Assembly: GCF_018977255.1 (NCBI RefSeq)
Contig: NW_024704742.1
Location: forward strand, 119,786,001 to 119,850,000
Reading direction: 5' to 3'
DNA from: Callorhinchus milii
Lineage: Eukaryota
Length of the DNA stretch: 64,000 nucleotides
Position 1 is the stretch's first letter. Each line of letters begins with the position of its first letter. Below are positions 218 through 26,374 of the stretch, piece after piece. The notes under the pieces were generated by a model. It was not told the DNA's origin and did no database searches. It saw only the letters and a list, made by a program, of their open reading frames with translations. Position numbers and translations under genes: made by a program.

Positions 218-348
218 TAAAGCCTGAACTACCATCTAAAATAACTTACAGAAAGAGTTCAGGAGAGTTACATCTGACTTGGAAAACTTTAAAGAACCTT
301 CGCTATGAGTTACATTACAAACAACGTGGAATGCCAAGCTGGATTTCA
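218..348 (+). CDS. Cytokine receptor exon: first half of CHR D3 domain
   Basis: gctacag|TAAAG...TTTCA|gtaagt. Encodes (V)KPELPSKITYRKSSGELHLTWKTLKNLRYELHYKQRGMPSWIS, the typical VKPxxP..LxW..YxLxY..W pattern. Phase 1 to 0. Confidence 0.9.
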
Positions 349-1951
349 GTAAGTAAACCCTTGGGAGATGAAAAGCATTGATGTATTTATCAGTTGTATC
401 TTGCAGCAAATATATACTGGCCCAAATATGTCTTGTTTACAAGTTCTAAGCATTGAAAAGGAGCATCTCTGAGTTTATTCATACTCTCTTTCTCTAACAC
501 AGTCACTACACTTTACAGTCAATTCTTGCGAAGCGTTTTGAGACATCTCAGCAATGTGATAATCTGCTATATCAAACACAATTATAGGATTTTTATTACT
601 CAGATCAAAATAGGCCAAAATAATAATAATAATAATAATATCAGGGGTAATTTCAAAATACATTTTAACCTATTTCTTAATTAATTAAAGACCAGAAATG
701 TGTTTAGGATAACCACAATTTTAACATAATTATAACTAGATTTACTGTAAAATGCATCATAGGTGCACATTCAAATTAATAATTATGTCATATCGTGAAC
801 GTTCTTTTTATGCCATTGAGAGTGCATATAATTTTCATAACATGACTGGGCTCAAGAATGGAAATATGTCTGGTCAAAATTTTGGTGCAAGTCACTGTTG
901 TCACTGCCACGAGTAACAATTTGATACCTTTTCCTTCTTTAACATCGCTAACACCGATTTGGTATTAAATACACTGATTTTTTTGCACTTTTTCTGCTGT
1001 GGAATTCCTCCTTAACAACTCTTAACAATTCCACAAAAGATTCAAAGGCCCCTTCCCATAATAAGAAATAAAATTGACCTGGGTTTGATTCCAGGCAGGG
1101 CGAAATATTGGGTAAGTTTCCTTACTCCACACTCTACTGTTTACATAGCAGTAAGTAGGAACCCAGTTGTTAGACGATTGGCGGATTGCTTTTCTGGGGG
1201 TAATAGTTCCTTAAAAAAAATAGTATATTGATCACTTCAATCCTCGACTATTTGTGGGACACTGCTGTGTGCAATTGCCTGCTGCGTTTCGCCCACAGAA
1301 TACACAGTTAATTCACTTCACAGTATATTTTGTGAAGTGCTTTGAGTTGTCTCGAAGATGTGATAAGGCGCTATATTAAATGCAAGGATTATTATTATTA
1401 TTATTATAGGCGTTATATCAAATACAAGGCTTATTACCATTATTATTATTTTGTGCTGGATAGGAATTTCAGAGACAGCCCTGAAAAATGTGTTAGGGTA
1501 TTGTGAAAGTCTGATATTAATAACAGTAATCTGCATTTATACCGACTCTTTCATGTAAAAATAAGTGCTTTGAAGCACTTTACAAAATCATTAGATTAGA
1601 AAGAAAGCGAATGTACCTAGGCAAAAGAAGGAGCTGATCTGCACTGGCAAAAGCCCATAAATAACAATCAAATGAGCAGTCGATATCAATGCAGCCTTGT
1701 TAAAATACGTTTCAATAACAGCGCAGATTCATTTATAACATGAATGGTGTGTGGTCCCCAAACATTATGTATGTTAGTGCTCCGAGACGCTATCTGCATG
1801 TAGAGCGCAATATAAATGCATGTTGTTGTTGTTGTATATGCCAGGCCAGCCAGTTTGATTCCTGCATTAAAAATGTCCAGGTCATTAAGTTGCCACTGAC
1901 ATCACCTCCTGCACATTGTAATGCATAACAACAACAACAAGATTCCATTTA

Positions 1952-2640
1952 TAACATAAGAACATAAGAAATGCTAGACAAAAAAAGACCAAGTCCATCT
2001 AGTTTGCCTTCCAGCGTCCTAGCAGTCGCATGCACATATGTTCCAAACTACCTATGTATTATATCCCATAATGTTATTTCCTAAAAAAAAGAAAACTATT
2101 TTCAACACTTCCTGCTTCAACTGTCTCCCTAGGGAGCCTGTTCCACAGGATCACTATTCACTCATTGAAATAGTAGATTCATTCTGAATTTACCGCCCCT
2201 TCAATCACAGGCCATGCCCTGTGGTTTTACTGTCTATACTAATCTATATTGATTGGCTCCTTCAGAATCTTAAAGACAGCAATCATGTCGCCTCTCAATC
2301 TTCTCTTTTCTAGCGTGAATTTACCCAATTTACTAAGTCGCTTCTCATAGTCCAGTCCCTCCATTCCGTCAATCATTTTGGTTGCCCTCCTCTGTATCTT
2401 CTCCACTTCTCCAGTATCTTTTTTATACTGCGGCGACCAGAACCGTACACAGTACTCTAAGTATGGTCTCACCAATGATGTATACAGTGGTAGGATTACC
2501 CCATTATTTTGGCTTGCTATTGATCTTTTGATACATCCCAACATCTGGTTTGCTTTACTCACTGCCACAGAGCATTGTTGGGAGAGCTTCAATTTATTGT
2601 CAATCAGGACCCCCAGGTCCTTTTCATTTTCCGTACATAT
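1952..2640 (-). mobile_element. CR1 LINE, 5'-truncated 3' end
   Basis: EKDLGVLIDNKL...LVRPYLEYCVRFWSP...LEKRRLRGDMI; short tandem tail (cataagaa on +). Confidence 0.9.
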
Positions 2641-2912
2641 TTCATAAATATTCCATCCATACATTCCATACACAACACATAAGACAAGGGTGACCGCTGG
2701 TTCCGTGGACGTCCTCTATTTGATTTAGAATGAAACTGAGACAATTAACACTTCTCATAGGTGGCTATTGGACCCTTTACATTCATCAAAAAACAAGTGG
2801 AATTAAAATTGAGGAAGAAGAAAACAAAAGAAAGAAAAAAATAAGAAAATAAATGAATAAAAATAGGGAAAATAAATACCCAATAAAATTTATATTTTTG
2901 CTAACATGAGAG

Positions 2913-3335
2913 ATCAGCCTGCCTCAGTTACTAGTACTCCTGTCTCTGAGTCAGAGGTTGCAGGTTTCAGCTGCACGTTGGGACTTTGAGCTCATAGCCT
3001 AACATTTCAGTGCATTACTGGTGCTGAATTGATGGAGGTGCCATCCTTCAGATGAGACATTAAACCAAGATCATGTCTGCTTGTTCAGATGGATGTTAAA
3101 AACCCATAGCGCTATTAGAAAAGTGAAGGGAGTTTCTTCCAGTGTCGTGGCCAACAATCCTGCAGTTAAAATAATTGGTGATTCACTTCATGGTTGTTTA
3201 TGGGACATTGTTGGGCACAAATTGGCTGCTGCATTCACCTACAAAACTACAGTCATTACATTTTATAGTAAAATTTTGTGAAACGCTTTGAGATGTTTTG
3301 ATGACATTATAAAGTGTTATCTCAAGTGGAAGATT
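2913..3335 (+). mobile_element. Deu-domain SINE (SacSINE1/AmnSINE-like)
   Basis: tRNA-like head, then ggaggtgccatccttcagatgagacattaaacc...gatgttaaaaacccat...gtgtcgtggccaac (Deu core), then L2-like tail. Confidence 0.78.
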
Positions 3336-3584
3336 TTTTTTAAAACAGGGAAATTTGAAGCTCAAATAATGAGATACATGAATTTTAAGTGAAGGAGGAA
3401 ACCCCAGTATCTAGGAGCATGTCTGATACAACACAAATGTCGTCATTTCGTACATACACACTGTTTCCGTTATCTCTCTACTCTTGTTAAAGTGCAGATG
3501 CATGGAAACCACAGGCTTCCTAAACCACATAAGAACCAAGCAGTGAAAATGCTCTTTAAACATGATTGTAAAAAGCCCCAAATT

Positions 3585-4330
3585 ACATTTGTATAGCCTC
3601 TTTCATATCGGGAGGACATCCCAAGGCGCTGGTCAGTCAAGGTTTTGGACCCGACCTGGGGGTCAGTAACGGGGAGGGTGAAGAGCAGGGAGGCTAGGAG
3701 GGTGGCCGAAGGCTTGGTTGAAGAGGAGAGTTTTGAGACATGGGAAGGAGGCAAGGGAGGGAGCGAGGCAAAGGGAATGTGGGTTGGAAATCCATAGGGT
3801 GGAGGCAGAAAGCTGAAGGCCCATTCGCTGATGGTGGGGTAGGCTGGGTGGGAGATATGGAGCAGGCCAGAGCCTGCTGAGCGGAGGGAGTGGACAGGTT
3901 GATATGGGCTCAGAAGGTCACAGAGGTAGGGAGGGGCAAGGCCATGGAGGGCCTTGAAGGCGAGGACGAGGATTTTGAACTCTATCCTCTGGGGGACAGA
4001 GAGCCAGTGGAGCTGGACGAGGATGGGGGTGGTGGGGTCACGGAGGCTGGTGCAGGAGAGGACATGAGCTGCAGAATTCTGGATGATCTGCAAAACATGG
4101 AGGGAAGAGTTGGGAAAGCTGACAAGCAAGAGGTTGGGTAGTCAAGCCTAGATGTGATGAACGCATGGATGAGGGTTTTGGCAGCCTGAGGCAGTGGCAA
4201 AGCCAGGCAATGTTGCGGAGGTGGGGGAAGGCAGAGCGGGTCATGGCACTGATGTGGGGTAGAAAGAACAGTTGAGGGTCAAACAAGACAGCAAGGTTCC
4301 GGACTGGCGCAGTGAGATGGAGTGTGCATC
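3585..4330 (-). mobile_element. L2 LINE 3' fragment
   Basis: LIHAFITSRLDY; LQIIQNSAA; LHWL..QRIEFKILVL.FKALHGLAPPYL. Confidence 0.9.
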
Positions 4331-4731
4331 CTTAGATGGTGATGACAGTACAGCCAGTCTTGCTCATTGGCAGGACCTGGAAGGGCAGACCAATCATTAA
4401 GAGCCCACTCAGCTCCTGTTAACCCTGCAAGCCAAAGTCCTAATGAGTAGGGTGGTTCTAGCTGGACAACCAGCAAGAAAACTTGACAGGCAGCAATATC
4501 AATGGCAAGCTATGTGGTTTTAGCTGGTTAGCCTCCAGCAGTACCTCAACGCACACTCTGGGGTCCCCAAGCCGTGGCTCTTGCTAACCTGCACCTAATT
4601 CTTTCCAGAATTAGGTAAACAGGATGTGTCCCTCCAAGGAGAGAGTGTATATTCCATTCCAACAATCTATCTCTGGAATTTCCATGTATAGGTGGGATGC
4701 ATGGAAATCTCAGTTTGGTTTGGATACTCTT

Positions 4732-5181
4732 ACAACAACAACAACAATAACAACAAGATTCCATTTATTGAGCGCCTTTCATGTCGGGAGGACGTCCCAA
4801 GGCGCTGTACAGTTGGGTCAGGATCCAAGCAGGGGGGAAATGGTCAGGGTGAGGGGAGGAAAGGGAGGGAGCGAGGAGGGGGTAGAGAGTCGAGAGGGGA
4901 GCTGAAGGCACGGTCAAAGAGAAAGGTCTTGAGACCGGCCTTGAAGGAGGAAAGGGAGGAGGCGGCGAAGGCACTGGGGGATAGAGTTCCAGAGCCTAGG
5001 GGCTGAGAGGCTGAAGGCCCGGCCACCGATGGTAGGGCGGTTGGGGTGGGGTATGTGGAGCAGACCGGAGCCAGAGGAACGGAGGGTACGGGCAGGTAAG
5101 TAGGGGGATAGTAGGTCAGAGAGGTAGGAGGGAGCAAGGCCGTGAATGGCCTTGTAGGTGAGGATGAGGAACTTGAATTTG
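4732..5181 (-). mobile_element. Young L2 LINE 3' fragment with (TTG)n tail
   Basis: Near-identical to the 3' part of 9608-10417; FKFLILTYKAIHGLAPSYLSDLL. Confidence 0.92.
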
Positions 5182-5494
5182 AGCATAGTGATGAGTTTCT
5201 ACATGTGTCAGACCAAAAAAAATCAGTGTGTTGATTATCATCAGGCTGCTTTTTTCACTGCATGTGAATCATGGGATGTGTTAACAAATGCTTAGTTTCC
5301 ATTGGTCAGGTTCTGCAGTGCACACTCTTTCTCCCCAGAGGGACTAGCCCTAATCCCAGAGGGTTTAAGAACTGGTTGAGAAAGAGCCAAGGTTTAGGAA
5401 TCCCAGAGGGTACATTTGGATTGCTGGAGTTTAACCAGCTATCATTGTTTCTATAACAAGTAAACAGAGACTAACTACATTTTTATTCCTAAAG

Positions 5495-5624
5495 CTTATA
5501 CCTGTACTGTCTGGAGAGGCTCATGTATCAGGATTAGAAGAACTCGCTGCCTATGAGTTTCAAATGTGCTGCAGATCTGAATCATCGCCCTGTTTCTGGA
5601 GTAACGTTTACCATGTTCCACCCG
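5495..5624 (+). CDS. Cytokine receptor exon: second half of CHR D3 with degenerate WSxWS (SSPCFWS)
   Basis: ttttattcctaaag|CTT...CCCG|gtaagt. Encodes LIPVLSGEAHVSGLEELAAYEFQMCCRSESSPCFWSNVYHVPP. Phase 0 to 1. Confidence 0.88.
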
Positions 5625-5649
5625 GTAAGTAAGTACGTTAGCCATTGCA

Positions 5650-6500
5650 ATTGGTTTGCATGAAAGCACAATCGAAGAGGAAGGTCTTCAGTCGAGAATT
5701 GAAGTAGGCAAGAGAATGGGTACGGTGGAGGGATTGAGGGATAGAGTTTCAGATTGTGGGGGCAGAGATGTTTAATGCCCAACCGCCAATGGTGGAGCGG
5801 GCAGTGCGGGAGACCTGAAGCAGGCCAGTGTCCGCCGAGTGGAGGGAATGGACAGGCTGATATGGAGTTATGAAGTCAGAGAGGTAGTGGGGAGCAAGAT
5901 GTGGAGGGCCTTGAAGGTAAGAACAAGAGTTTTGTACTCGATTTTCTGAGGAATGGGGAACCAGGCAAGAACAGGGGTGATAGGTTCCCGGAGACTGGTG
6001 TGGGAGAGAACACAAACTGCAGAGTTCTGAATAATCTGCAGCTTGTGGAGGGAAGAGTTGGGAAGCCTGGTGAGCAGGCAGTTGGTGGAGTCAAGCTGGG
6101 ACCTAATGACAGCGTGGATCAGGGTCTCGGCGGCCTGCGGTGAGAGGCAGTGGCGGAGGTGGGCAATGTTGTGGAGGTGTGGAAAGGCGGAACGGGTCAC
6201 GGCACAAATGTGGGGTTTGAAAGATAGCTGAGGGTTGAAAAGGACTTCAAGGTTTGGGATTGACTCGGTGAGGTGAAGAGTGGCGTCATGAAGGGTGATA
6301 GTATCAGCGGCTGAGGTGAGGAGGCGCTGCCGGAAGCCAAGCAGGCGGGCCTCTGTCTTGCCAACATTGAGCCGGAGGAAGTTGGCTCTCATCCAGGACT
6401 TGGTGTCAAACAGACAATTAGCCAGGATATCAACGGTCCTGGAGTCGAGGGTGAAGGCGGCGAGATAGGGTTGGATGTTATCCGCATACATGTGGAAAGT
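5650..6500 (-). mobile_element. L2 LINE RT fragment
   Basis: FHMYADNIQ...NFLRLNVGKTEA...AAETLIHA. Confidence 0.9.
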
Positions 6501-6791
6501 ACAGTGCTTGAGGAGCTCTGCATTGTCAGACATGTTGTCTTTTGGGTGAGACATTAAAGGGAAGTACTGTTCAGGTGGATGTTAAAGATTCCGTGACACT
6601 ATTCAAAAAGAGGAGTTTCTTCCAATGTTTTGGCTAACAAACATCCAGATAAAATCGGCATTCACTTCATAGCTGTTTGTGAGCCATGTGTGTGTAATTA
6701 CCTGTGAAGTGCTTTTAGATTTCAATATTATAGGTGATACATCAGCTCCAAGGATTATTATTACATTTTAGACTTTATGATTTGTACAAGC

Positions 6792-7109
6792 AATAATAAT
6801 AATAATCCTTGCATTTGATATAGCCCTTTTCACGTCGGGAGGACGTCCCAAAGCGCTTCACAGAACACACTGTAAAGCGAATTGACTGTATATTTGTGGG
6901 CAAACGCAGCAGCTAATTGCGCACAGCAATGTCCCACAAACAGTCGTAGATTGAAAATGACCAATTTATTGTTGTTTTTTGTTTTGGAGGGATTATTATT
7001 AGTTGTGTGGAGTAAGGAAACTTGCCCAAGGTTTCGCCCTCTGCCTGGAATTGAACTCAGGTCTCTCACTTGCAAAGCGAGTGCTCTAACCACTGAGCTA
7101 CAGGACTCC
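6792..7109 (-). mobile_element. tRNA(Ala)-derived SINE, full length
   Basis: Reverse complement closely matches 46117-46437. Confidence 0.9.
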
Positions 7110-7557
7110 ACATTGAGGTATTGAGTATTGAGTATTGAGGTCGCTGGACATTCAAAGTCTTTTTGCAAGTAAATTATTACTATTTACTAATAAATAGTAA
7201 ATAAGTGTCATTCCTGCCCACGATCTTTCCCCATTACTTATAAAGCTCGGGTGCAAATCCTCGACTGCCCAGCGCTTTGGGATGTGAAAGACACTATGCA
7301 ATGTAAATTTATTGTGTTGTTATATTGTCACTTGCAGTCGTGTTTGAGCGAGCTTCAACCATACACTGAATACCATAGCATACATGGGCATTGGTGAAGA
7401 TTAGTTGAGTACAGTTACACATTGTAACTTTGTAATTTTTCGTTGATTTTTAGTACTTTAATCTGGCGATCGTGAGCCAATATTCACAGCAATTTGAAAC
7501 AAGGCCGACAATAGAGCAAGATTTCAACTAACAATAATTCTTTCTATTTTATCATAG

Positions 7558-7643
7558 AACTGAGAGAAATGCCTCAAATTCATTTGCCCATCCATACTAT
7601 ACAAAACAAAAATGGAAAGCGTACGATTTCTTTAAGTTGGGAG
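7558..7643 (+). CDS. Cytokine receptor exon: start of first membrane-proximal FN3
   Basis: ttttatcatag|AAC...GGGAG|gtacgt. Encodes (E)LREMPQIHLPIHTIQNKNGKRTISLSWE, the short exon typical of tall receptors. Phase 1 to 0. Confidence 0.88.
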
Positions 7644-7689
7644 GTACGTGTGCTAATTTTCTTTACTTGTATACGGGAAGGTTACAATA

Positions 7690-10600
7690 AGAACAACAAA
7701 TTATATTTATAGAGCGCCTTTCACGTCGGGAGGATGTCCCAAAGTTCTGGACAGTCAGGGGTCAGGATCCAAGCATGGGGGAGGGGTGGGGTACGGGGTG
7801 AGGGAAGGCAGTGAGGTGGGAGGGCGTGTCGGGCGGGAGACATGGAGCAGGCCGGAGCCCGCTGAACGGAGGGAGCGGGCAGGTTGGTAGGGAGTCAGCA
7901 GGTCAGAAAGGTAGGAGGGGCAAGGCCATGGATGGCCTTGAAAGTGAGGACGAGGATCTTGAATTCAATCCTCTGAGGGATGGGGAGCCAGTGGAGTCGG
8001 GCCAGGGTGGGAGTGATGGGGTCACGGAGCCTGGTACGTGAGAGTACAGGAGCTGCAGAGTTTTGGATGATCTGCAGCTTGTGAAGAGAAGAGTTGGGAA
8101 GGCCGATGAGGAGGGAATTTCCATAATCGAGCCTTGATGTGACGAATGCATGGATAAGGGTTTCGGCAGCCTGAGGGGTGAGGCAGTGGCAGAGTCTGGC
8201 AATGTTGTGGAGGTGGTGGTAGGCAGTGCCGGTCATGGCACGGATGTGGGGCAGAAAGAACAGTTCAGGGTCAAACAAGACACCCAGGTTCCTGACTGGC
8301 TTAGTGAGGTTGAGTGTGCAGCCGTGGAGGCTGATGCTGCCAGCGGCCAAGGTGTAGAGGCGCTGGCGCGAGCCAATCAGGAATGCCTCGGTCTTGCTGA
8401 CGTTCAGTTGGAGAAAATTGTCCCTCGTCCGGGACTTCATGTCAGATAGGCAGTCGGTCGGGACGCCAGTTGTCCTGGAGTTGAGGGTGGAGGTAGAAAG
8501 ATAGAGTTGGGTGTCATCCGCATTCCATGTGAAAATTTACCCCATGTCTGCGGATGACGTCACCAAGGAGGAGCATGTAGAGGATGAAGAGGAGGGGACC
8601 GAGGACAGAGCACTGAGGAAAGCCGCACGGGATGGTGTGGGGGCTGGAGGATAAGCCATTTGCTGAGACGAAGTGGAGGCGGTGTAAAAGGTAGGACCTG
8701 AACCAGTCAAGGACAGAACCTTGGAGGTTGAGATGGGAAGAGAAGTGGTGGAGAAGGATTGAATGGTCCACCATGTCAAGAGCAGCGGAGAGGTTGAGGA
8801 GGCAGAGGGAGCCCTGGTCACACATGGTCAGGATGTCATTTGTGACCTTGAGCAGAGTAGACCAGAGAAACTCGATTGGAGGGGCTCATGGACGGAGTGG
8901 GAGGAGAGGAAAGAGCGAAGCTGGGAGGCAACGGCTCTCTCAAGGATCTTGGACAGGACAGGAAGGTTTGAGGTGGGCCAGTAGCTGGATAGCTGTGATG
9001 GGTCAAGGGAAGGTTTTTTCAAGGTGGGGGCGATAGTAGCTGTTTTGAAGGGGATAGGAACAGTGCCAGATAACAGGGAGAGATTAATAATGTCAGCGAG
9101 TAGTGGGGCAAGGAGGTGGAGCTGGGATTTAAGGAGAGGGGTGGGGTTGCCCTTTGCCTCCAGGATTAACCTGGAATAGAAGGATGATTTGGCCGAGGCA
9201 AGAGCAGAGCGGTAGGTTTTGATGTAGTCCAGCCAGATCTGCCAGTGGACCATTCGGGCGTTTTGAGCCAAGTGCATTCAGCAGCCCGCACCTGGCCCTT
9301 GAGTGAGCGGAGGTGGCTGGTGAACCTGAGTGAGGATCGAGAATAAGAGGCAGTTCGGGAGGTGAGGGGAGCAAAGCTGTCGAGTGTGGTGGAAAGGGTG
9401 CTGTGGAGGAGAATAAATGCAGAGGATGGGTTAGTGCGGGAGGTGGGCCAGAGGGGGAGGAGTTCAGAGGACTCCAGGGCAGCAGAGAGGGATTGCGGGG
9501 AAATCTTCTTCCACGGGCAGTAGGAGATGGTGGTAGGTTTGGAGGCAGTGGGGAGAGGGATATAGGAGTTGAGGGAGATGAAATGGTGGTCAGAGATGGC
9601 CTTGTTGACAACATCAGCATCCAAGGCTGCACTCTCCACCTCTCAAAGCCAGTCAGGAACCTCGGGGTTCTGTTCGACCCTGAGCTGTCCTTTCTCCCTC
9701 ATATCCACGCCACAACTGGCACCGCCTTCCATCACCTCCGGAATGTCGCCAGACTACGGCACTACCTCACCCCTCACGCTGCTGAAACTCTGGTCCACGC
9801 CTTTATCACCTCAAGGCTGGACTATGGGAACTCTCTCCTCGCCGGCCTTCCCGGCACCTCCCTCCACAAGCTGCAGGTCATTCAGAACTCTGCAGCTCGT
9901 GTACTGTCCCGCACCAGGCTTCGCGACCACATCACTCCCACCCTCGCTCGCCTCCACTGGCTCCCCATCCCCCAGAGGATCGAATTCAAGATCCTCATCC
10001 TTACCTACAAGGCCATTCACGGCCTTGCTCCCCCCTACCTCTCCGACCTACTATACCCCTACCTACCTGCCCGTACCCTCCGTTCCTCTGGCTCCGGTCT
10101 GCTCCACATCCCCCGCCCCAACCGCCCTACCATCGGCGGCCGGGCCTTCAGCCTCTCAGCCCCTAGGCTCTGGAACTCTATCCCCCAGTGCCTTCGCCTT
10201 GCCTCCTCCCTTTCCTCCTTCAAGGCCGGTCTCAAGACCTTTCTCTTTGACCGTGTCTTCAGCTCCCCTCTCAACTCTCTACCCCCTCCTCGCTCCCTCC
10301 CTTCCCTCCCCCTGACCATTTCCCCTTTGCTCGGGTCCTGACCCAACTGTGCAGCGCCTTGGGACGTCCTCCCGATGTGAAAGGCGCTCAATAAATTGAA
10401 TCTTGTTGTTGTTGTTGGTGGTGATGGTGACATCCGAGACACTGAGGCCCTGGGTGATCACCAGGTTGAGCGGGTGACCGTGAATGTGGGTAGCAGAGTG
10501 GACGTGGAGGGAGAGTTTGAGAGAGGAGAGGAGAGAGAAGTCTGAGGAGGTGGGGCAAGAGGGGGTGAAGTGGAGGTTGAAGTCGCCTAGGATGATGAGG

Positions 10601-10890
10601 TGGTCGGAGCAGAGGCAGAGGGAAGTTAGGAGGGTCAGAAATGAAGATGGGGGAGGATTTTGGGGGGGCGGTAAGGTAGGAGGATTTTCAGAGAGGTGGG
10701 AGGGATGGCAGAGGGTAAGATGCTTGAAGGAGGGAAACGAGCCGGTAGCCCTGGATATGAGAGCACACCACCGCCACGACATTTGGGGCGTCAGGCATGG
10801 TGGTAGGTGTAGCCGGGTGGTGTGGCCTCAGTGAGCGGGAAGGTGTCACCTGGGGTGATCCAGGTTTCTGTGAGGGCCATAATGTCAATG
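7690..10890 (-). mobile_element. Older L2 LINE (APE endonuclease + RT, decayed), interrupted by a younger L2
   Basis: LIILGDFNLH...THIHGHPLNLVI...AISDHH (APE); [29 protein letters not shown] (RT). Confidence 0.92.
9608..10417 (+). mobile_element. Young 5'-truncated L2 LINE nested in the older L2
   Basis: Uninterrupted ORF2 C-terminus to the stop at 10341; 3' UTR ending gaaaggcgctcaataaat...(TTG)n. Confidence 0.95.
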
Positions 10891-11059
10891 TGCATCAGCC
10901 AAGATGCGCACGCTGGGACGAGAGGCGGCGGGCTAGTGGGACATTGGCAGCCTGCAGGAGGAATGCAGTGAGACGTTTTACCGCGGCTTTTAGTTTTTTT
11001 CTGGTTCTGTCTTTTGAGTGTGACATCACGTTGAGGTCACTTGTTGTTTATCTGCAGAT

Positions 11060-16222: not shown

Positions 16223-17089
16223 ATCTGGTTGAAACACCTCAATGCATGGATTTCCCTTCAAAATGCTTTTATTAGATCGCCCTTTCATTTGACTGAATTT
16301 CCATTTCAGCTGTCTTGCAGAGATATTAAAGCGAAGATAATTGGTAACAGCTTAGCCTTTTTGAAGATTTTGGCATAAATATGTTACATCTGTCTCACTG
16401 TCTTTAATGTGCATCATTAATAATTCAAAAATGAATAAAATATAAGTTAATAAAACTGATGTGCAGTAAAATATAGAGGGCAGCAAACCTCAAAAATTAT
16501 ACTTTGATGTTACTATTTCACCGTCGCTCAAATATTATTTCCTCCCTAAAAACTCGATTTCTCATTAACTATTCAAAACCTGCTCAGGACACTTGCATTC
16601 TAAATGAGAGAGAGAGATTGATTGAGGGAGAGAGAGAAACAAAAAGAGTGAGAGAGTAGAGAGAGGAGAAGTGAGGGCAGTGTTTCTTGGTTCACTGTCA
16701 GGACAGACAATCGGAGCTTCCCTCAGTCACTGTTGGGGGGCCCCGAGGATAGACACAGAGTGATGTGCCGTGCAGTTTCCTCCCAGAAAGCTCCTTCTTT
16801 CCCCAGTGAAAAACTCCACTGTGTCCTTCATTCCCTCCCACTCTACTTCTGCAAGCTCTTGACCTGGCTGTTTCCTTTACAGGCATACATCAGCGTGCTT
16901 CATGTCCCCCCACCCAATCTGCCCCACCATCGTCATTTTCCCCTCACTCTCTGGAGCTTCATTCCTGGAGTCCTTCCGACTCCCTCCATCCCTTCTTTCA
17001 AAGCACTTCAAGAGCTAAATCTTTGACTTTTCCCCTCCCCATTCCACCTCTCTCGGCTCCCACCACCAGCTCAGTTGCCCAGCTGGCAG

Positions 17090-17470
17090 TGTTTAGTGCT
17101 TTAAGATAAGAGGTTTTAAGGACTAACAGAGAAGGGAAGCAGGGCAAGAAAGACAAAGGAGAAAATGGGGTGGAGGACAGAGGATGATGGGTTAAAGAAA
17201 TGTTAATAATGCAAAACAAAAGAGGGCAGCACAGGCAGACAAGAGAGAAAAGGTGCGTCTGGGACCCAGATGATGTGCAAATGGTCACAGAAGAGGAGGA
17301 AGAGGAAGGTAAGCTGTTATGGGAGATGTTCTAATGGTCTGAAGTGGTTGAACTCAATATTGAGGCCAAGGTCCCTAGCAGATAGATGAGGTGCTGTTTC
17401 TCGAGCTTGCGTTGTGCTTCATGGGAACAGGATAGGAGACCATGGATGGAGAGGTCAGAGTGTGAGTGGG
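17090..17470 (-). mobile_element. Penelope-like element remnant (GIY-YIG endonuclease C-terminus and 3' UTR)
   Basis: SHSHSDLSIHGLLSCSHEAQRKLEKQHLIYLLGTL, then after a frameshift LNIEFNHFR; recognised Penelope EN tail pattern. Confidence 0.75.
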
Positions 17471-18746
17471 AGAGTAATTCTTTCCAGTTAACAGGTTTAT
17501 TTTCTGTGGGCATTTATTTCCTTATCCTATTGATAATAATTTGTCTTCTTATTGTGGAGGAAGAAGTACATCACAACAATGTACAACACAGAAACAGGCC
17601 ACTCGGCTTAACCAATCTGTGCTGGTGATTATACTCTAATACAAGTCTTCACTCATACCTTACTCCCTCCATTACTCTTCTATTCCCATCTACCTCAGGT
17701 GAAGGTCTAGCTTCCTCTTGAACAGTCATTAATCTCTTTAGTCTCCTCTCCCGCCGTTTTCCTACCATCCTCTCTCTGGCGTGTCTGGTGCTGGGCAGTG
17801 ACATATATGCAGCTCAGCTGCTTACAGATAGATTGAGATTAGTTATTTTATTTTTAACTCAATCACCACTGTGACTGAGCAAACAGTCCACAGGCCTCTA
17901 TCAGTGATGCTGGAAACGTTTACAAGGCCTTTGGGAAAGAGCGGGCAAGTGGGACTAATTGGATTGCTCTTTTCAAAGAGTAGGCAAAGGCACGATGGGC
18001 CAAATGGCCTCCTTCTGTGCTGTAAGATTCTATGCTCTGCGATCAAAGGTAGGGAATCTACTATGGCTTAGTCCTGTGATGACAGTGTAGGTTTATTATC
18101 AAATTTAGCTTTAGAATTGGTTTGATAACTACCAGGGTGGATTGTAGGTTAACTACATTCATTTGCTCTTGATACTATTGGTTGTCTTTCTTTTATTCAG
18201 TATAGAGTATGCATTTTTATAGGCTTTTTGTAATTGCTTTGCTATCTTGTAGGCATACTTTGCTTGCCATTTAGAGGAACAGGAGTATTCAACAAGAATT
18301 CAACCTTTAGATTAAAATGGTGCCCCAATACCTATATAACATTTCATTAGTTCTGTGTAATAAGTTTGGTTCTATGTGCCTGACTCTGTCTTAGCCACTT
18401 GAAAACCAATTCTCAGCATTGACCCTCTCCTGCTTCGGGGAAGTACTTTGTCTCTACTCAGGATGTTACCTAAATTGGCTTGTCTGAGATTCAGAAATCA
18501 CTATATTCTTGTAGAAGAGCAATGATTTCATTTGAAGAGCAAAGATTTTATCCCTACAAATATATGCCTCTGACATTTCTATAATTTTAGCATTATGCAA
18601 GTACAGTTTGTTCTATCACCTGTCTGCAGATTAATTTTGAAAATATTTTAGTATGAAATTGTAACTGTTTATGGTTGGGTCAAGTGGCCTGTTTCTGGGT
18701 TGTACATTCTTTGTTTACTGTATTAAATTGTTTTCCATTGATTTAG

Positions 18747-18866
18747 GACCATTTAAACCAAATCAACGATATAGAATAATGTTACATCGGAGAGAAAACA
18801 AAAGAAACCAGGTGAATGACAGTGAGACAACAGAAGGGATGGTTGACATTTACGTATTGGAAGGAA
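18747..18866 (+). CDS. Cytokine receptor exon: FN3
   Basis: gatttag|GA...GGAA|gtgagt. Encodes (G)PFKPNQRYRIMLHRRENKRNQVNDSETTEGMVDIYVLEG. Phase 1 to 1. Confidence 0.9.
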
Positions 18867-18970
18867 GTGAGTTTAACTATATTTTTTTGATTTTTTTTCT
18901 ATTTCTATTACTACATTTCATTTTTTAAAAAACATTAACACATGTGCATTTGATTTCCTCCCAACTTCAG

Positions 18971-19132
18971 CACCTAAGAAAAGTCCAGGTAATCTTAGAG
19001 TCACCAATATTACCCAAAACACCGCAATGATAAGATGGAATAAAATACCTGAAGAAGATTGTGAAGGTTTTCTTCAAGGGTACAAGATTATCTATGATTT
19101 TCACATGGCTTCCATCAGTAAACCTTTGAAAT
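18971..19132 (+). CDS. Cytokine receptor exon: FN3
   Basis: ccaacttcag|CA...AAAT|gtaagt. Encodes (T)PKKSPGNLRVTNITQNTAMIRWNKIPEEDCEGFLQGYKIIYDFHMASISKPLK. Phase 1 to 1. Confidence 0.93.
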
Positions 19133-19910
19133 GTAAGTTGAAAATATATAAGTATAAAACTTCTGTAAGTGAAAAATTCTCCTTGATACAGATTAATTTC
19201 CTAGCAGTAATATATATGCTATTTCACAATTAAATGAAATTTGGCCAAATGGGAAACCAAATGGAGGAGGAATAAAGAAACATCCCAATGGTAAAGAACA
19301 ATCCTCCAAATAAAATTGATCATTCACTCAATATTGCTCTGAGCAAATTGGCACCCACAAAATGGACAGTCACACCATATTACAGTACATCCTGCGAAAC
19401 ATTTTGAGACGTCTTGACAACGTGATATGGAGCCATATCAAATGCATGGATTATTTTATGACAAAGTACCAGGTAGCTTCAAGGAAAGCGATTGAGTCTG
19501 CTAACCTCAGTTCATGTATACTCAACGGCAATTCAAGTTGCCGTTGAGTATACTGTCACCAAACAAAGGAATCTTTCATCCAGGATGGCTAGAGTCCAAT
19601 CCAGGCCCCAAGTAAAAGAACAATAAATAATACTTATAATAATCCTTGCTTTTCATCTTGCTACTTATCATGTCATTGATGGCACTTCACAGAATATATT
19701 GTAAAGTGACTGTGTATTTTGTGAGCGAAACACAGGAGCCAATTGCACACAGCAGTGTCCCACAAACAGTCGTGTCAATGTGCTACACCATCCTATCCTT
19801 GTTACCTTGTTTCTAACCTTGCTCTTTATTGGTATTTTTTACTGGTTCAAGCATTGACTGTGTGTGTTGTCCCTCAGGGAAGTAAGTTTGCGTTTCTGTT
19901 ACTTTTGCAG

Positions 19911-20054
19911 CCATTTCAGTAAACTCATCCACGGCCAGTTTGGTGCTCACTGGGCTAACACGCAAAACTGTGTATGCGGTGCACGCTTTGGGCTTCACCA
20001 ACGCTGGAGATGGAGTCAGGAGTCCAGTTGTGTCTTTTGCTACAGAAGAATTTG
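19911..20054 (+). CDS. Cytokine receptor exon: end of last FN3
   Basis: acttttgcag|CC...TTTG|gtaaag. Encodes (S)ISVNSSTASLVLTGLTRKTVYAVHALGFTNAGDGVRSPVVSFATEEF. Phase 1 to 1. Confidence 0.92.
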
Positions 20055-20435
20055 GTAAAGTTTAAAAAAACACTTTCTTTGTTATAACATGACCAATGGA
20101 CCTTGATAAAACAATGGACAAAAAGAAATTCAGGATGGACTCAAGGTTCCCTGGCCTTGGAACATTTATGAGTTTTCTCTAATGATCTATGGCCAATTTC
20201 AATTTGTTTATGCTTCTAGGTTTGTAAGAGATGCTGAGGGATTTCTTTTAATATTCAGATGCCTTCAGGGACTATCCATAAATTATTGATACAAAGTAAA
20301 GGGATAAGATTCAAGTTGAGAAATATTCCTCCTTTTGGTGCATGACAGCATTGATCATATTAAATAGTTCTGAGTTTCACTGTATGTTATTTTCAGGGTG
20401 CGCACAGATCGGGCACTCTTTGAACTACAGAACAT

Positions 20436-20790
20436 GGAGTCCTGTAGCTCAGTGGTTAGAGCACTCACCTTGCAGGTGAGAGACCTGGGTTTGAGTCCCG
20501 GCAAGGCGAAATGTTGGGCAAGTTTCCTTACTCCACATGCCTCTGTTTACCTAACAGTAAGTGGGTGGGAACCTGGTTGTTAGTCGATTTGTGGATCATT
20601 TTTCCAGGAGTAATAATTCCTTTTTTAAAAAATTGGTCGCTTCAATCCTTGACTGTTTGTGGGACACTACTGTGCCACATTTCATCCACAAAATATACAG
20701 TCAATTCACTTTACAGTTTATTCTATGAAGCGCTTTGAGACATCTCAAAGATGTGATAAAGCGCTATATCAAATGCAAGGATTATTATTA
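20436..20790 (+). mobile_element. tRNA-derived SINE (same family, older)
   Basis: ggagtcctgtagctcagtggttagagc head and the same tail. Related partial copies near 1075-1410, 12864-13190, 21145-21381 and 45140-45305. Confidence 0.85.
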
Positions 20791-23195
20791 CAGGAGTATC
20801 TAAGGGAAACTTTTCATATATTTATTCACATCACATCTGATTCAACTTCTGGAGAATTCTGATGCTGGACATATTACTTTCCTAGAACTCTTTTGCACTT
20901 CCTAGATCTTGTTCATTCATTTTTGGCCTGAAATTTTCCTTAGTCTTAGCCTGCAAGACAAATTCATCTTGAAATTTAAAATCAAGCAGAATTATGAAAT
21001 TATCCAATTCAGCCTCAGTTTAGAAACTAGTTTCTTTATAAGAACTGGAGAAAGCCAGATTCTAAATTAAGACAGAATTTGAGAATTTTCCTCAATTCTG
21101 CACAAAGAGAAAATGGTCTAAAGGCTAAGACTGGGTGGGGGCGTAGCAGTGTCCCACAAATAGTTGTAGATTGAGTGTCCAAATTCTTAATTTTGTTAAG
21201 GGATTATTATCCCTGGAAAGCAATCTGCCAATTGACTAACAACTGGGTTCCTAGTTACTACTAGGTAAACAGAGGCGTGTGGAGTAAGGAAATTTGACTG
21301 AGGTTTTGTCCCGCCCGGGAAGCGAACTCAGATCCTCTCGCTTGTGAGGAGAGTGCGCTGACCACTACACAACAGGACTCCTCAAATATACGTTTACGTC
21401 TGTTTGAACGTATGTTCAGGATGTATTAAGGTTACCTCAGCTGCTCTTCCTCCTGCTGCAACCCTTATACTGCATACAAGTTCTTTTAGGAAGGCTGTTA
21501 ACTGTAAAAGTGCAGGGGCTGCACTCCCTGTAACAAGTTGTAAAAATGCTCCTGTTACTGGCACCTAACTGTGGGAAAAAGTGCCTCACGACATAAATTG
21601 TGTCTCCAGCAGGGAATATCTATGAACGTCACACCGACTTGCTAGTCCTTAGCTATGTGGTGACCTTGGGTTGGAGCTGACAACTTGCGAGTTGGTGTGA
21701 CATACATGGGTTTTCCTGCTATACACATTTTACTCCTCAAGTTACTTTTACAAGGCGCCAGCAACAGTAGAATTTTACTGAAGAAGGCTTCTTCAATCAG
21801 AATAACTAACTTTGTGAAAGTGTACATGACTGGTCGTAGCTCTGGAACAGGTTCTACTCTCATAGAAATATATCAAATGGATTATGAGAAGGTAAGAAAC
21901 ATAAGACAATGACTGTCGCATTCGCTCACAAAATATACACCACTTCACAGTATATTCAGTTAAACTCTTTGAAAGGTCTAGAAAACGTGAAAGGCGCTAT
22001 ATCAAATGCAAGGATTATTATTTTGTGTTGTAGATTTCTATGGTTGTGTGGGTCTATGGGTTAATGGCTTCAATTCCTGCAGAAGAGAATTTGTAGAGGC
22101 ATAAATTTTATCTAGCACTAAAAATCTTAAACAGTGAGAATTTGTCATTGCAAACCACCATGCCATACCCTGAAATAAAACACAGTGCAATGCTTAATTT
22201 AGTAAAGAGCAGCATGACATCACCTGTACTAAAACTAGGAGTGAAAGATGTCCATTCTGATTTAGTGTGGAATTGGTGAATTTACTAAAATACACTCAGA
22301 ACAGGACACATTACTTGTGCAATCAGACACAGTGTGGGTGAGTATTTTCTCAATTATGTTGATATACTTATGTCCTGGACAGTCCCAGTTGAATAGAAGA
22401 ACTGTCCCTCAACATTTCTGAGAAACTTTAAGAAGCCAAAGATAGATAGAGAATTATTGAAATTAGGCAAACATCACAGACAACAAGGGCTGGTTAAATG
22501 CACAAGACCAGAGCTGATACTTTGAGTCCACTCCATGAATTGTATTGTTAAAAATCCAATGGTTACTTGCATTTTATCAAGACCTTTTTTAGTCATATTT
22601 AAAATGGTGTCAGAGTGCCTGAGTTGGTAGCACTCCCGCCTTTAGATGAGAAGAATGCAGGATGAGGAATCGAGGTATGATTTGAACTAAGTTGACATTT
22701 CAGTGCAGTACTAATAATAAAATAATTAATAATCCTTGCATTTGATATACTGCCTCATCACGTCTCAAAGTGCTTCACAGAATATACTGTAAAGTGAATT
22801 GAATGTATATTTTGTGGTTAAAATAAGGCGGTGAATTGGCACTTTACATGTTTTGGAGACCTTTCTGTGCACAAATGGTTACCACTTTTGCCTACAGAAA
22901 CAGTGACTTCATTTCACAGTAATTACAGTTATGTGTGTTGGTGTGACATATATAGTAACTTACTGTAACTTAATGTTACTAATTATGTTTTTGATGTGTT
23001 AATGTGCTAAAAGAGGGATTTCTGCTTCATGTTTGCGATGACTGGGTTCCTTCCAGTTTCCAGACATCAATAAAATCATATTTCCAAAACAGTTGGAATA
23101 GACCGCAATAAATTGTGAATTGAGCAGCAGGAAATACAGCATCTGTAAAACCTTCAATGTAGTACCTTATGCCCATCTGTTTACAATTGCAACAG

Positions 23196-23292
23196 GTGAT
23201 GGAGAAATAACAAAAATTGCTGTTGGTGTTTCTTTTGCTGTTATTGGTGGTGTGTTTCTTCTGGTGTGGATATTTTCAGTGATTGTGAAAAG
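23196..23292 (+). CDS. Cytokine receptor transmembrane exon
   Basis: gcaacag|GT...AAAAG|gtaaga. Encodes (G)DGEITKIAVGVSFAVIGGVFLLVWIFSVIVK(R), a hydrophobic helix followed by KR. Phase 1 to 2. Confidence 0.93.
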
Positions 23293-24231
23293 GTAAGAAA
23301 CATAAGACATTGACAAGGAGTTATTGAAGCAAGCTGATATTCATGGGAGGATAGGGAGAAAAGGAAACACTTCTACAATTGCTTTGTTAAGGAACGAAGA
23401 TTTCAAAATTAGGATAACAAATGGATTGAAGATAAGGAAGTTATCATTATAAAATCATTATTCAACCAACGGGGTATTGTTTTGCTCCTCTTCAACTGGA
23501 TTAAACATCCGCACATCCCATTTACCTGAGGCCTACAGTGCTCCACATGTAAACTGTGTGTAAACTATTCATCATCACCACGTGTGTGTGCAGGGAATTA
23601 CAGGCACCCTTAATTGTGTAATTAACAAGCAATGCCAAAAATGTATAATTGTATAATTAATAAACCCTTTTCAATTATAAATTACATACTAAAATGAGGC
23701 ACCTGTACCTCATTATACACGTGTAACACATGCCGCAAAATACACATGCATTTACACATGATGCGTAATACAGCAGTCCTTGATCATATCGTGCAATCAA
23801 CAACAACAAGATTATATTTGAGGACGTCCCAAGGCACTGGACAGAGTACAGCATTTCAGACCCTAATCAACAGTTAAAATGTTTCCAAGGCTTAGCTCTT
23901 GCCAACCTGCACCTAATATTCTTTGGAATTAGGTAAGCAGGATGGGTCCCTGCTGGGAGTGTATGCACCCATTCCAATACACAGGAAATTCCATGTGTAG
24001 GTGGGATGCACAGAACTCTCAATTTGGTTTGGATACTTTTGAACATGGTGATGGGTTTCCGCTGCGTCAAGGATACCTGCCTGACCAAGAAAAGTTTAAA
24101 AAGTGTGATGAAAAGTTAGGGATGAATAATGAGACTGCACTGTAGAGTAAGCTTTATTCGGTCATAATTCCATCCATTGATTTCATTGAATGAATTGTAA
24201 AATCTAATATTGTAAACCCTTTTTATTTCAG

Positions 24232-24313
24232 AGTAAAGGAAGATATTTGGCCGAACATACCAAACCCCAAGAACAGTTATGCGATTGAAATTATGAGGAA
24301 GGGTCCATCAGTG
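24232..24313 (+). CDS. Cytokine receptor Box1 (JAK-binding) exon
   Basis: ttttatttcag|A...GTG|gtatgt. Encodes (R)VKEDIWPNIPNPKNSYAIEIMRKGPSV, the gp130-type WPxIPxP Box1. Phase 2 to 0. Confidence 0.94.
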
Positions 24314-24889
24314 GTATGTAATTTTTTTTTGTATCTCTATGTATTCCATCATAAGTTAGACCGAGCATCCATGTAGATCAATGAGATCAACGCCTGAGAT
24401 GTTTAGACACTGCTAATAGCCAAGCAGGGGAGCCACGATTCTGTTGACATTTAACTTAAGAAAGTTAAGAGCTCATGCAAAATGTAATACCCGACGGGGT
24501 AGTCAGAACAGCATTGGTCCTGGAATCAAAGGTAGAGGCAGAGAAGACGGGACTCCATGCCTACGGACCATGTTACTGGTGACTTTAACCAGGGTCGTCC
24601 CATTGCTGTGGGCAGGGTAGAACAATACATGTTTAAATTAAAGATCAAAAGAAAATCACAAACTAGTGTTTATGTTGAAAATCTGAAGCAAAAAGTAAGG
24701 ATTATTATTATTATTATAATAAAACAACTGGTCAGGCTTCATTTGAAAGAGAGTGATTACTCTGACTTTGCCTGGTCTGGTATAGGATTACACTGATACA
24801 TTAACAGGGAAGGTAACTGAGGACAGGACACCATTTAAGGAATAGCTTGATGCTGTGATAAGAGGACGGTAGGTTGGATAATTCAAACA

Positions 24890-25372
24890 CACTTCTCGCC
24901 GGTCTCCCCAGCTCCACTATTCAAAAAATCCAGCTCATTCAGAACTTTGCCCCCCTCATACTTATCCGGACCAAACTCCATACCCGGATTTCACCATTTC
25001 TGGCCAGGCTCCACTGAAACCCCATCACCGAATGGATCGACTTCAAGATCCTCACACTCGTGTTCAAATCCCTTCATTCTCTGGCACCTCCCTACCTCTC
25101 CGACCTCTTCACTGCCCAATTCACCACCTGGCGCCTCCGCTCAACTGGCACCAGCCTCCTGCTCATCCCTCGCACTCTCCGCCCCATCATTGGAGGTCAC
25201 ACTTTCAGCAACTATGCTCCTAAACTCTGGAACACTGTCCCTCGATCCCTCCGCTTTACCACCTCTCTCCTCTTTTTCAAGTCCTGCCTGAAAACCTTCC
25301 TCTACGACTATCCTGTTAAGCAGTCTAAGATACTAACCTGCATGGAGGGTGCTATATAAGTGCAAGTTGTTG
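24890..25372 (+). mobile_element. L2 LINE 3' fragment
   Basis: FKSLHSLAPPYLSDLF...PKLWNTVP; tail ggtgctatataagtgcaagttgttg. Confidence 0.88.
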
Positions 25373-25537
25373 GGTATTTTGGATGACATCAAATGGGCTG
25401 AAGGGACTTTTGTATCTGAATCAATTTTTGTGTTAAATCTATTTTTGAGCTGTTGATCAAGGTGTTACATTTTCTCAGCATTATTTTTAAATGATGTTGT
25501 GGAAATCTCTAACATTTTCTTTTATTTGGATTGTTAG

Positions 25538-25933
25538 CCAAACCTGAATGATGACTCGCTAAATCTTAGCACCAACGCCCCTGCTGAAGAAGCAGAAGAG
25601 GAGCTTGAAATCATTCATCCCATTGAAGGAGTCCTCAGCTCACCCACTCATCAGGAGTTGCAAAAGAATGAACAAGATAACCTATTAAGAGACCCCGACC
25701 AGGAATCTAGAAATAGCCTCAAGAGCAAACCAACAGCAGTTGTACAAGTTACTGATTACACAACAATGGAGCACTTCCACCAAATGATGCCAAACTTTGC
25801 AAACAATGGACTGGAGGCACATTTGTCCGGCCTGACCAAAGTAAGGCAGAGTGTAACTACCAAAGTCAACAGAGTGACTTTCCAGTCCCAGACTATGTTA
25901 AACAACCAGTCCACCAAGCATTTAAGCAAATGA
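25538..25933 (+). CDS. Cytokine receptor terminal (cytoplasmic) exon as written; true C-terminus may continue in the -1 frame to 26082
   Basis: ttgttag|CCAAAC. Encodes PNLNDDSL...EEELEII...VTDYTTMEHFHQMMP...HLSK*. AATAAA at 26167-26172. Confidence 0.8.
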   Translation, partial: PNLNDDSLNLSTNAPAEEAEEELEIIHPIEGVLSSPTHQELQKNEQDNLLRDPDQESRNSLKSKPTAVVQVTDYTTMEHFHQMMPNFANNGLEAHLSGLTKVRQSVTTKVNRVTFQSQTMLNNQSTKHLSK

Positions 25934-26374
25934 ACACCAAAACAAGTAGAAATCAAACAGAGTGGGTTATACAGCTGAAGGATTCAGAAACCCTGAACTT
26001 GTTAAATAGTCTGAATTTGAAGCAGAAGCCATCAGGTGAACAATGTGAACATCTTTATTCTGAGGATTCAATACATTTGTAGAATTATTTTACTGTGATT
26101 ATTAATATTAGACAACTTCTACAACAATTATTTTTAGACCTTTATGGACAATATTTAGTCAATAATAATAAAATAACCATTTGTTCACACTATTACCACT
26201 GTTACCACTGTGCCAGGCTCTACAAAACAACTTGCACTTATATAGTGCCTTTCAGGATGAATGACTTAAAGCACTTAACAAATATGGTAGGAAGCCATGA
26301 GCAGAAAGTAAAAGGATTTTGACCAGCAGCAGTAGAATATAAAATACAAAAGTTAATCAGAATTAATCTAGAAT

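Follow-up and report, generated by a model that had tools for sequence, protein, structure and literature searches.

The genome of the elephant shark, Callorhinchus milii, contains a class I cytokine receptor gene on the plus strand of a 64,000-nucleotide stretch (C1:119786001-119850000 of the 991.5-Mb assembly, C1 being contig NW_024704742.1). This whole stretch is called the window, and the receptor lies at window positions 218-26082. The locus is very probably the elephant shark ortholog of IL31RAL, a gp130-family class I receptor of non-mammalian jawed vertebrates and a duplication-derived sister of IL12RB1. The exons were mapped by tblastn with the full-length zebra shark (P0002) and numbfish (P0003) orthologs, and the exon ends were placed by hand at AG/GT sites. 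Thirteen consecutive coding exons are in phase, two upstream of the window and eleven inside it. The 12 junctions between them all have AG/GT borders and preserve the phase, and no exon contains a stop. The receptor has at least 13 coding exons, spanning about 29 to 38 kb. An earlier note on this DNA, made from the sequence alone, had proposed a spliceable plus-strand receptor at this place, and the eleven in-window exons with AG/GT borders and consistent phases bear this out. The missing exons that were to be sought upstream of base 1 are present there as well. The exons are as follows, negative positions lying upstream of the window.

-11662 to -11617 (L010:8338-8383), plus strand: candidate signal-peptide exon, from a relaxed scan, with a fitting phase
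-3167 to -3056 (L009:6833-6944), plus strand: receptor exon upstream of the window, found by tblastn
-1358 to -1204 (L009:8642-8796), plus strand: receptor exon upstream of the window, found by tblastn
218-348, plus strand: first half of CHR domain D2 (VKPELPSKITYRK...SWIS); tblastn to residues 138-184 of P0002; AG/GT, phase 1 in
5495-5624, plus strand: second half of D2 with a degenerate WSxWS box (PCFWSNVYHVPP), aligned to WSSWSKVYLVPP of P0002
7558-7643, plus strand: first part of FN3 domain D3, holding PQIHLPIHTIQNKNGKRTISL; tblastn, AG/GT
12243-12459, plus strand: second part of D3, with LSGASF; 3' end matched by a spliced X5 contig
12567-12755, plus strand: first half of D4; 5' end matched by a spliced X5 contig
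18747-18866, plus strand: second half of D4; tblastn; included in the NCBI model P0001
18971-19132, plus strand: first half of D5 (IPEEDCEGFLQGY); tblastn to residues 428-478 of P0002, 51% identity
19911-20054, plus strand: second half of D5; tblastn, AG/GT
23196-23292, plus strand: transmembrane exon; tblastn; matches P0001
24232-24313, plus strand: box1 exon (WPNIPNP), the JAK-docking motif; tblastn, AG/GT
25538-26082, plus strand: last exon, cytoplasmic tail with DYTTME and DYVKQ (YxxQ); stop at 26080-26082

The strict scan for a first exon, which required G as the last base and a Cys, gave no candidates. The relaxed scan gave two candidates, and one of them (-11662 to -11617) is plausible. 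It encodes MTNFIFLLLLGYIGT plus one base, ends at the donor CAG/GTAAGA, and weakly resembles the ray N-terminus. A match to 'CEKDILLGSK' at -22378 was rejected as the first exon, having no start codon, signal peptide or donor. The segment 7338-7397 ('SCLSELQPYTEY') does not fit the phase and ends in a stop, and it was rejected as the second exon of D2 in favour of 5495-5624. On the plus strand this segment reads 'SCLSELQPYTEYHSIHGHW', which is similar to an FN3 F strand behind a good acceptor, and it may be a chance match or a relic exon. The receptor introns (2239-16351, minus strand) are rich in retroelement debris. Reverse-transcriptase-like frames are located on the minus strand at 2239-2715, 5868-6581, 7895-8536, 8514-8885, 11537-11989 and 15881-16351. 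The GC content of the receptor intron region from 4 to 12 kb reaches 0.5-0.56.

The tail exon is 100% identical to XP_007890419.1 (P0001, Callorhinchus, 'uncharacterized protein LOC103177862', 482 aa). This public model is partial and unnamed. It begins in intron-derived sequence, lacks all exons of D1 and D2 as well as the first one of D3, and skips the first D5 exon 18971-19132. The motif IPEEDCEGFLQGY of the skipped exon is kept in all 17 orthologs of the family alignment. As assembled, the last exon shifts its reading frame near 25810. Window positions 6301-26300 were compared with contigs from four public runs (X1, X2, X5 and X6). A C is inserted behind 25810 in all three covering runs (depth 6.48/6.48 in X1, 13.5/13.5 in X2 and 4.2/4.2 in X5), and run X6 has no coverage at this position. 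The inserted C restores the frame of the older NCBI model, which reads through. As the C is present in every covering run and the frame of that model is restored, the frame break at 25810 is a 1-bp assembly error. A 263-base X5 contig joins 12318-12459 to 12567-12687, exactly at the predicted donor and acceptor. This contig skips a 107-base GT..AG intron, and it is therefore best explained by spliced RNA. Further X5 and X6 contigs are located on the last exon. The elephant shark gene is intact and transcribed.

The encoded protein has about 723 residues plus the signal peptide. No Ig domain precedes its D1-D2 cytokine-binding module, which is followed by three FN3 domains, a single transmembrane helix and a tail about 190 residues long. 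This is the tall architecture of gp130-type receptors. A profile of 17 orthologs is collinear with gp130 residues 126-764 (D2 to beyond box1), running through D2-D6, the transmembrane segment and box1 (WPNIPNP), and fn3 matches are found. The Pfam domain Lep_receptor_Ig is present in gp130 (P0132) and IL12RB2 (P0102), and is found in none of three members of the orthologous clade described below (P0002, P0003 and P0005), nor in the IL12RB1-type protein P0044. The WSxWS box reads PCFWS in the elephant shark, WSSWS in the zebra shark, and mostly C.W[SGT] in bony vertebrates. The box1 motif WPxIPNP is found in 17 of 18 orthologs and in 91 of the 94 teleost members of 650 aa or more. The corresponding counts are 15 of 18 and 55 of 94 for the SDYTTMExFQ or DYTTME-like motif, and 14 of 18 and 78 of 94 for YxxQ within the last 120 residues (DYVKQ here). 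An acidic SLxVIE stretch is also conserved among the orthologs. The motif strings on which the earlier note based its IL12RB1 likeness are present in the exons: 'WSNVYHVPP' with a split E (5597-5624/7558), PQIHLPIHTIQNKNGKRTISL, 'LSGASF' (12363) and 'DCEGFLQGY' (19057). The likeness itself is undetectable with the second D2 exon alone, which gave no IL12RB1 matches in the PDB at E<=10; the top match was CSF3R, at 0.15.

A HMMER search over 1.84 billion representative proteins with a cut-off of E<=0.001 detected 138 relatives. According to a FastTree analysis of the 107 relatives of 450-1100 aa, the query belongs to a 50-row clade. Names were looked up for 30 representatives. The clade includes cartilaginous and bony fishes (zebra shark, numbfish, coelacanth, bichir, reedfish, gar, bowfin, arowana, pike, carp and dragonet) and tetrapods (frogs, axolotl, caecilian, skink, garter snake, crocodilians and sparrow). 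No mammal is present among the named clade members; most rows are unnamed. Located outside the clade are the axolotl and newt IL12RB1, CSF3R, gp130, the IL31RA of Rhea and mole, IL12RB2 (P0102, 328 bits on the PDB chain), the OSMR/LIFR-type P0119 and the Ig-bearing gp130/IL12RB2-like P0094. With the carp member as query, 119 proteins were retrieved, most of them from teleosts. The automatic names of clade members conflict, being IL31RA(-like), IL6ST(-like), LIFR and OSMR, and the teleost set adds IL12RB2, sidekick-1/2 and contactin-1. The zebrafish clade member is annotated as 'uncharacterized protein', and the suggestion of the earlier note that teleost genes labelled il12rb2l are orthologs is unconfirmed. 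Among the papers listed by the literature search, il12rb2l is used merely as a gene label. In the part of Liongue and Ward (2007) consulted, zebrafish il-12rbeta2.a and.b are reported, and no IL-12Rbeta1, IL-27Ralpha or GLMR was found.

The careful tree was calculated with IQ-TREE from 45 rows and 682 columns under LG+C20+F+G4 by posterior mean site frequencies. Seven rows were dropped: the unnamed P0118 and P0127, P0105 of the IL31RA clade, a long dragonet protein, a CSF3R of odd composition, a near-duplicate crocodile protein and one gp130. A clade of 17 rows, in which sharks, ray-finned fishes, coelacanth, amphibians, reptiles and a bird are represented, includes the window gene and has a support of 100/100. 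The split between this clade plus seven IL12RB1-group rows and the other 21 rows (gp130, IL31RA, CSF3R, IL12RB2 and LIFR/OSMR) has a support of 100/99. The same split is obtained in a 52-row LG+G4 tree, where the Shimodaira-Hasegawa-like approximate likelihood ratio test (SH-aLRT) gives 100. It is also obtained from the CHR alone (191 columns, with two short rows lost) and from D3-D5 alone (290 columns), with an SH-aLRT of 99 in each case. Constraining the clade with gp130, IL31RA and P0109 costs 106.9 log-likelihood units, and this placement is rejected by the approximately unbiased (AU) test (p-AU 3.08e-5). The clade is apart from the mammalian and avian IL31RA, and the window gene is not in tandem with IL6ST. 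Thus the IL12RB1-type grouping proposed in the earlier note is recovered.

The family has already been described. According to the parts of PMC12284397 consulted (Mol Biol Evol 2025, msaf157, published July 2025), the family is named IL31RAL and is "not found in human". There, IL31RAL is traced to the second genome duplication, as the sister of IL12RB1. The two make up a clade of their own, supported by 95% on the CRH tree, in which lamprey sequences are lacking; IL12RB1 is derived from the second gnathostome duplication, and IL31RAL is lost in humans and some sharks. Its Tables S2/S3 list as IL31RA-like the gar XP_015192434.1, the reedfish XP_051785437.1 and the coelacanth XP_006012047.2. These are identical to P0005, P0164 and P0007, respectively, which are contained in our 100/100 clade. 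As the three published accessions lie inside this clade, the window gene belongs to the IL31RAL orthologous group. The gene list of the paper has Callorhinchus entries for IL6ST/IL31RA and IL27RA only, and an elephant shark IL31RAL is unlisted there. MAST3, MAST4, PIK3R, SREK1 and ERBIN are not mentioned in its main text or supplement text. Within the literature searched, PMC12284397 is the sole source of the term IL31RAL, and the window gene is not treated in the consulted part of PMC12162339. The novelty that the earlier note implied for the IL12RB1-sister reading is therefore lost, as the same conclusion has been in print since July 2025. The IL31RAL family and its sister relation to IL12RB1 are already known. 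What the present analysis adds is the elephant shark member together with its corrected gene model, the assembly error, the micro-synteny and the motif survey.

A separate IL12RB1-type gene is present in the elephant shark genome. It is located on contig C21, and its surroundings mirror those of the window gene. The genes concerned, together with the other neighbours of the receptor, are as follows.

C21:9409965-9417603 (L022-L023), minus strand: IL12RB1-type gene, matched by manta P0044 in nine collinear pieces from the N- to the C-terminus
C21:9442417-9446206, plus strand: MAST exons, head-to-head with the IL12RB1-type gene
C21:9475923-9477475, plus strand: PIK3R exons, after the C21 MAST
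C1:119200107-119201145, minus strand: PIK3R iSH2 exons, beyond MAST
C1:119509411-119517550, minus strand: MAST gene (DUF1908 exons), 265 kb before the first mapped exon of the receptor
window 37270-48820, minus strand: gene with RRM_1 and arginine/serine-rich (RS-rich) frames, tail-to-tail with the receptor; the bounds are those of open frames, not exon ends
1.9 kb past the window end (L019:1891-2136), minus strand: Erbin-type PDZ exon, 55.7 bits for Erbin vs 40.1 for LRRC7

The C21 IL12RB1-type gene is open, with a canonical WSNWS box, a transmembrane segment and box1. Its manta counterpart P0044, a member of a small shark/ray clade, aligns end to end with the PDB IL12RB1 ectodomain chain (61.4 bits). 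The tail of the C21 gene carries the motif 'AFEYRQQMG'; the manta protein has 'AFEYRRQMG', and 'SYKRQM' and 'SYQRQM' in the axolotl and newt IL12RB1 are similar. The C21 gene is head-to-head with MAST, followed by PIK3R, a layout which we take to be the MAST3-PIK3R2 pattern of human 19p13. It is the separate IL12RB1-type gene whose existence beside MAST3/PIK3R2 had been left to a genome search. On C1 the gene order is PIK3R (minus), MAST (minus), receptor (plus), RRM/RS gene (minus) and ERBIN (minus). Because MAST lies on the minus strand upstream of the plus-strand receptor, the two genes form a divergent, head-to-head pair, as had been expected, and PIK3R follows. The order in human 5q12-13 is presumably ERBIN-SREK1-MAST4-PIK3R1. 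The mirrored micro-synteny of receptor, MAST and PIK3R within one genome is a new observation. MAST is present at four loci in the genome and PIK3R at three. Four single-protein queries detected no receptor next to the two remaining MAST loci (C5 and C29).

The tail-to-tail neighbour had been named SREK1 in the earlier note. A minus-strand gene in this arrangement is confirmed, with an RRM exon at 48548-48820 (RRM_1, 4.7e-12) and RS-rich frames at 44425-44769, 40610-40783 and 38694-39068, all on the minus strand. The RRM exon gave generic RRM matches only in the PDB, so that the name SREK1 is unconfirmed and follows from the position only. A run of 30 N (56331-56360) and a short-period tandem repeat (56322-56774, 'HITHPILHQP' / 'YYTPHTAPAP') are located near the presumed 5' end of this gene. 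ERBIN upstream of the RRM/RS gene is confirmed by the minus-strand PDZ exon, and a 614-codon open frame is located farther beyond this exon.

Other receptor loci were also detected. A cluster of three gp130-like genes is located at C1:123322717-123440373, at a distance of 3.6 Mb from the window. One of these genes is on the minus strand (123.416-123.440 Mb), the other two are on the plus strand (123.323-123.334 Mb and 123.396-123.403 Mb). The cluster at 123.32-123.44 Mb is probably IL6ST with IL31RA-type neighbours. The IL12RB2 ortholog is located at C5:3.38-3.40 Mb (C5:3.38-3.42 Mb with its neighbour), on a contig that also bears a third MAST/PIK3R pair. An unidentified FN3-rich gene at C21:3288436-3301096 (plus strand) has frames of 190-280 codons and weak matches from three receptor queries. 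The axolotl IL12RB1 (P0117) as query gave no matches in the elephant shark genome, and a single relative, from a newt, in the protein index. A genome search with Pfam IL12p40_C gave no matches either; the control genomes also gave none, and this result is uninformative.

Several points weigh against the identification of the window gene as IL31RAL, sister of IL12RB1. Regarding the gene, the first exon is a candidate only, the elasmobranch orthologs have about 18 extra residues here, and a mini-exon may be missing from the model. The WSxWS box is degenerate in the elephant shark (CFWS), and the RNA status of runs X5 and X6 is only guessed. Of the 265-kb interval between receptor and MAST, the nearest 100 kb was retrieved, and other genes may lie in between. 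Regarding the phylogeny, the trees are unrooted and contain no mammalian IL12RB1, IL27RA or IL23R. The IL12RB1 group (three shark/ray and four amphibian rows) reaches only 97/92, and its rows fail to form a single clade in the D3-D5 tree. The group used for the AU test was fixed after the tree was seen, though the contrary outcome had been stated beforehand in the earlier note. The family profile gives 181-189 bits on gp130 ectodomains vs 124 and 106 on IL12RB1, and on CHR-only chains 83 bits on gp130 vs 47.7 on IL12RB1. As plain similarity is nearer to gp130 than to IL12RB1, the sister relation rests on the unrooted trees. We read the closeness of the profile to gp130 as slow gp130 evolution, not as kinship. 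It is unlikely, though worth weighing, that the clade and IL12RB1 are not ohnologs from the second duplication, the root lying between them or the grouping being an artefact of fast evolution and of the Ig-less architecture common to both, with the MAST/PIK3R likeness left by an older or segmental duplication. The unrooted trees, the long IL12RB1 branches (0.5-0.9) and the paraphyly of IL12RB1 in the D3-D5 tree are compatible with this explanation. The timing is also unbracketed from below, no lamprey member being given in the consulted parts of PMC12284397, and two of the four expected receptor copies are seen, with none at the C5 and C29 MAST loci. However, the split holds under a site-heterogeneous model and in two non-overlapping partitions, and the Ig-less IL31RA stays outside the group. 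Cartilaginous fishes and amphibians each have both genes, and thus the duplication is older than the split of these lineages. Both are equally oriented beside paralogous MAST-PIK3R pairs, and PMC12284397, in the parts consulted, infers the second round of duplication (2R) from chromosome-scale paralogons.

The remaining explanations concern the identity and the state of the gene itself. That the window gene is a genuine IL31RA, or else a different gene of the IL6ST/IL31RA tandem cluster, shifted by a few Mb, would agree with the NCBI automatic names of many orthologs, with gp130 as the top PDB similarity, with the gp130 cluster 3.6 Mb off on the same contig, and with the Ig-less build that we take IL31RA to share. 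We give this explanation hardly any credence: the IL31RA of Rhea and mole groups with gp130 outside the clade, the constrained placement with gp130 and IL31RA is rejected, and the profile gives just 58-59 bits on the IL31RA CHR. Moreover, the bird P0032 is in the clade while another bird has a true IL31RA (P0064), and the automatic names are inconsistent, with LIFR, OSMR, IL12RB2, sidekick and contactin among the 119 proteins. The gene could instead be the only IL12RB1 ortholog of the lineage, translocated from the MAST3/PIK3R2 neighbourhood. The trees group it with IL12RB1, and the CHR of P0002 gives 52.4 bits on one IL12RB1 chain vs 35.9-40.3 on gp130 CHR chains. The slot beside MAST3/PIK3R2 is, however, filled by the C21 gene, and thus the window gene is not a sole IL12RB1 that was moved by translocation. 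With this second collinear and open gene, the end-to-end match of the manta ortholog to the IL12RB1 ectodomain chain, and the presence in axolotl of a named IL12RB1 (P0117) alongside a clade member (P0041/P0161), such a translocation is practically discounted. A decaying or silent copy is very improbable. The assembled last exon does read in two frames, the WSxWS box is CFWS, the NCBI model is partial with one exon skipped, and no sequencing run is recorded as RNA. Against this, the frameshift is missing from the three covering runs and from the older NCBI model, the 12 internal junctions are canonical without stops in the exons, the exon borders in the spliced contig coincide with the predicted sites, and bony-vertebrate orthologs normally have 'C.WS' where the first WS would stand.

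The window gene is thus compared here, as IL31RAL, with the known receptors. With the published IL31RAL it shares the orthologous group, the sister relation to IL12RB1 and a position a few Mb from the IL6ST/IL31RA cluster (42.46 vs 44.08 Mb on gar LG2; 119.79 vs 123.4 Mb here). The elephant shark member and the MAST/PIK3R micro-synteny are not in the consulted parts of the paper, which also give no function. With IL12RB1, its sister clade, it shares the five-domain build without the Ig domain and the head-to-head arrangement with MAST, with PIK3R beyond; a YxxQ-type motif is likewise seen in the tails of IL12RB1-type proteins from sharks and amphibians. IL12RB1 is nevertheless a separate gene and clade, defined functionally by its binding of the p40 subunit of IL-12/IL-23. 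Its WSxWS box is canonical (WSEWS/WSNWS), whereas that of IL31RAL is mostly C.WS, and its tail motif is FEYRRQM, whereas IL31RAL has DYTTME and DYVKQ. The similarity to gp130 (IL6ST) is the highest (181-237 bits with the family profile). The stretch of membrane-proximal FN3, transmembrane segment and box1 is alike in the two, and the YxxQ is of the STAT3 type, as gp130's own motif presumably is. Unlike gp130, the window gene has no Ig domain and belongs to another clade (the constraint being rejected), and gp130 has its own cluster elsewhere.

We propose that the receptor and IL12RB1 arose from one gene in a block in which a receptor was head-to-head with MAST, followed by PIK3R. This block would have been duplicated before the split of cartilaginous and bony vertebrates, most likely in the second vertebrate genome duplication. 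In gp130-type receptors, box1 holds JAK, and phosphorylated YxxQ docks STAT3. By analogy with these receptors, the conserved box1 and YxxQ suggest that the protein would be a signalling chain of a heteromeric cytokine receptor. The D1-D2 module would bind a four-helix or p40-type cytokine, JAK would be held on the conserved box1 (WPxIPNP), and the phosphorylated C-terminal YxxQ tyrosine (DYVKQ) would recruit STAT3. This putative mechanism is read from motifs only, which also counts among the points against it. The idea of the earlier note that this lineage has extra IL-12/IL-23-family receptor pairings is speculation. More specifically, it is a rather doubtful possibility that IL31RAL is a signalling-competent counterpart of IL12RB1, binding a p40-type or IL-6/IL-12-family cytokine and pairing with IL12RB2, IL23R or a gp130-like chain. 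The conservation of the family from chimaeras to birds, with box1 and the tyrosine motifs kept, is compatible with such a role.

The idea of an IL12RB1 sister is correct, and as it is already published, the picture of cytokine receptor evolution is unchanged. The mirrored layout of receptor, MAST and PIK3R gives a simple positional rule that separates IL31RAL from IL12RB1. The public annotation of the family is chaotic, and expression studies of fish and birds on 'il31ra' or 'il6st-like' may be reporting IL31RAL. The conserved box1 and YxxQ provide a concrete, testable signalling prediction. IL31RAL is an orphan receptor that sharks, fishes, amphibians, reptiles and birds have kept for over 400 million years; in humans it is absent according to the consulted parts of PMC12284397. 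If the pairing proposed above is true, non-mammalian jawed vertebrates would have an extra IL-12/IL-23-like complex, coupled to STAT3 via its own YxxQ, which was lost in mammals.

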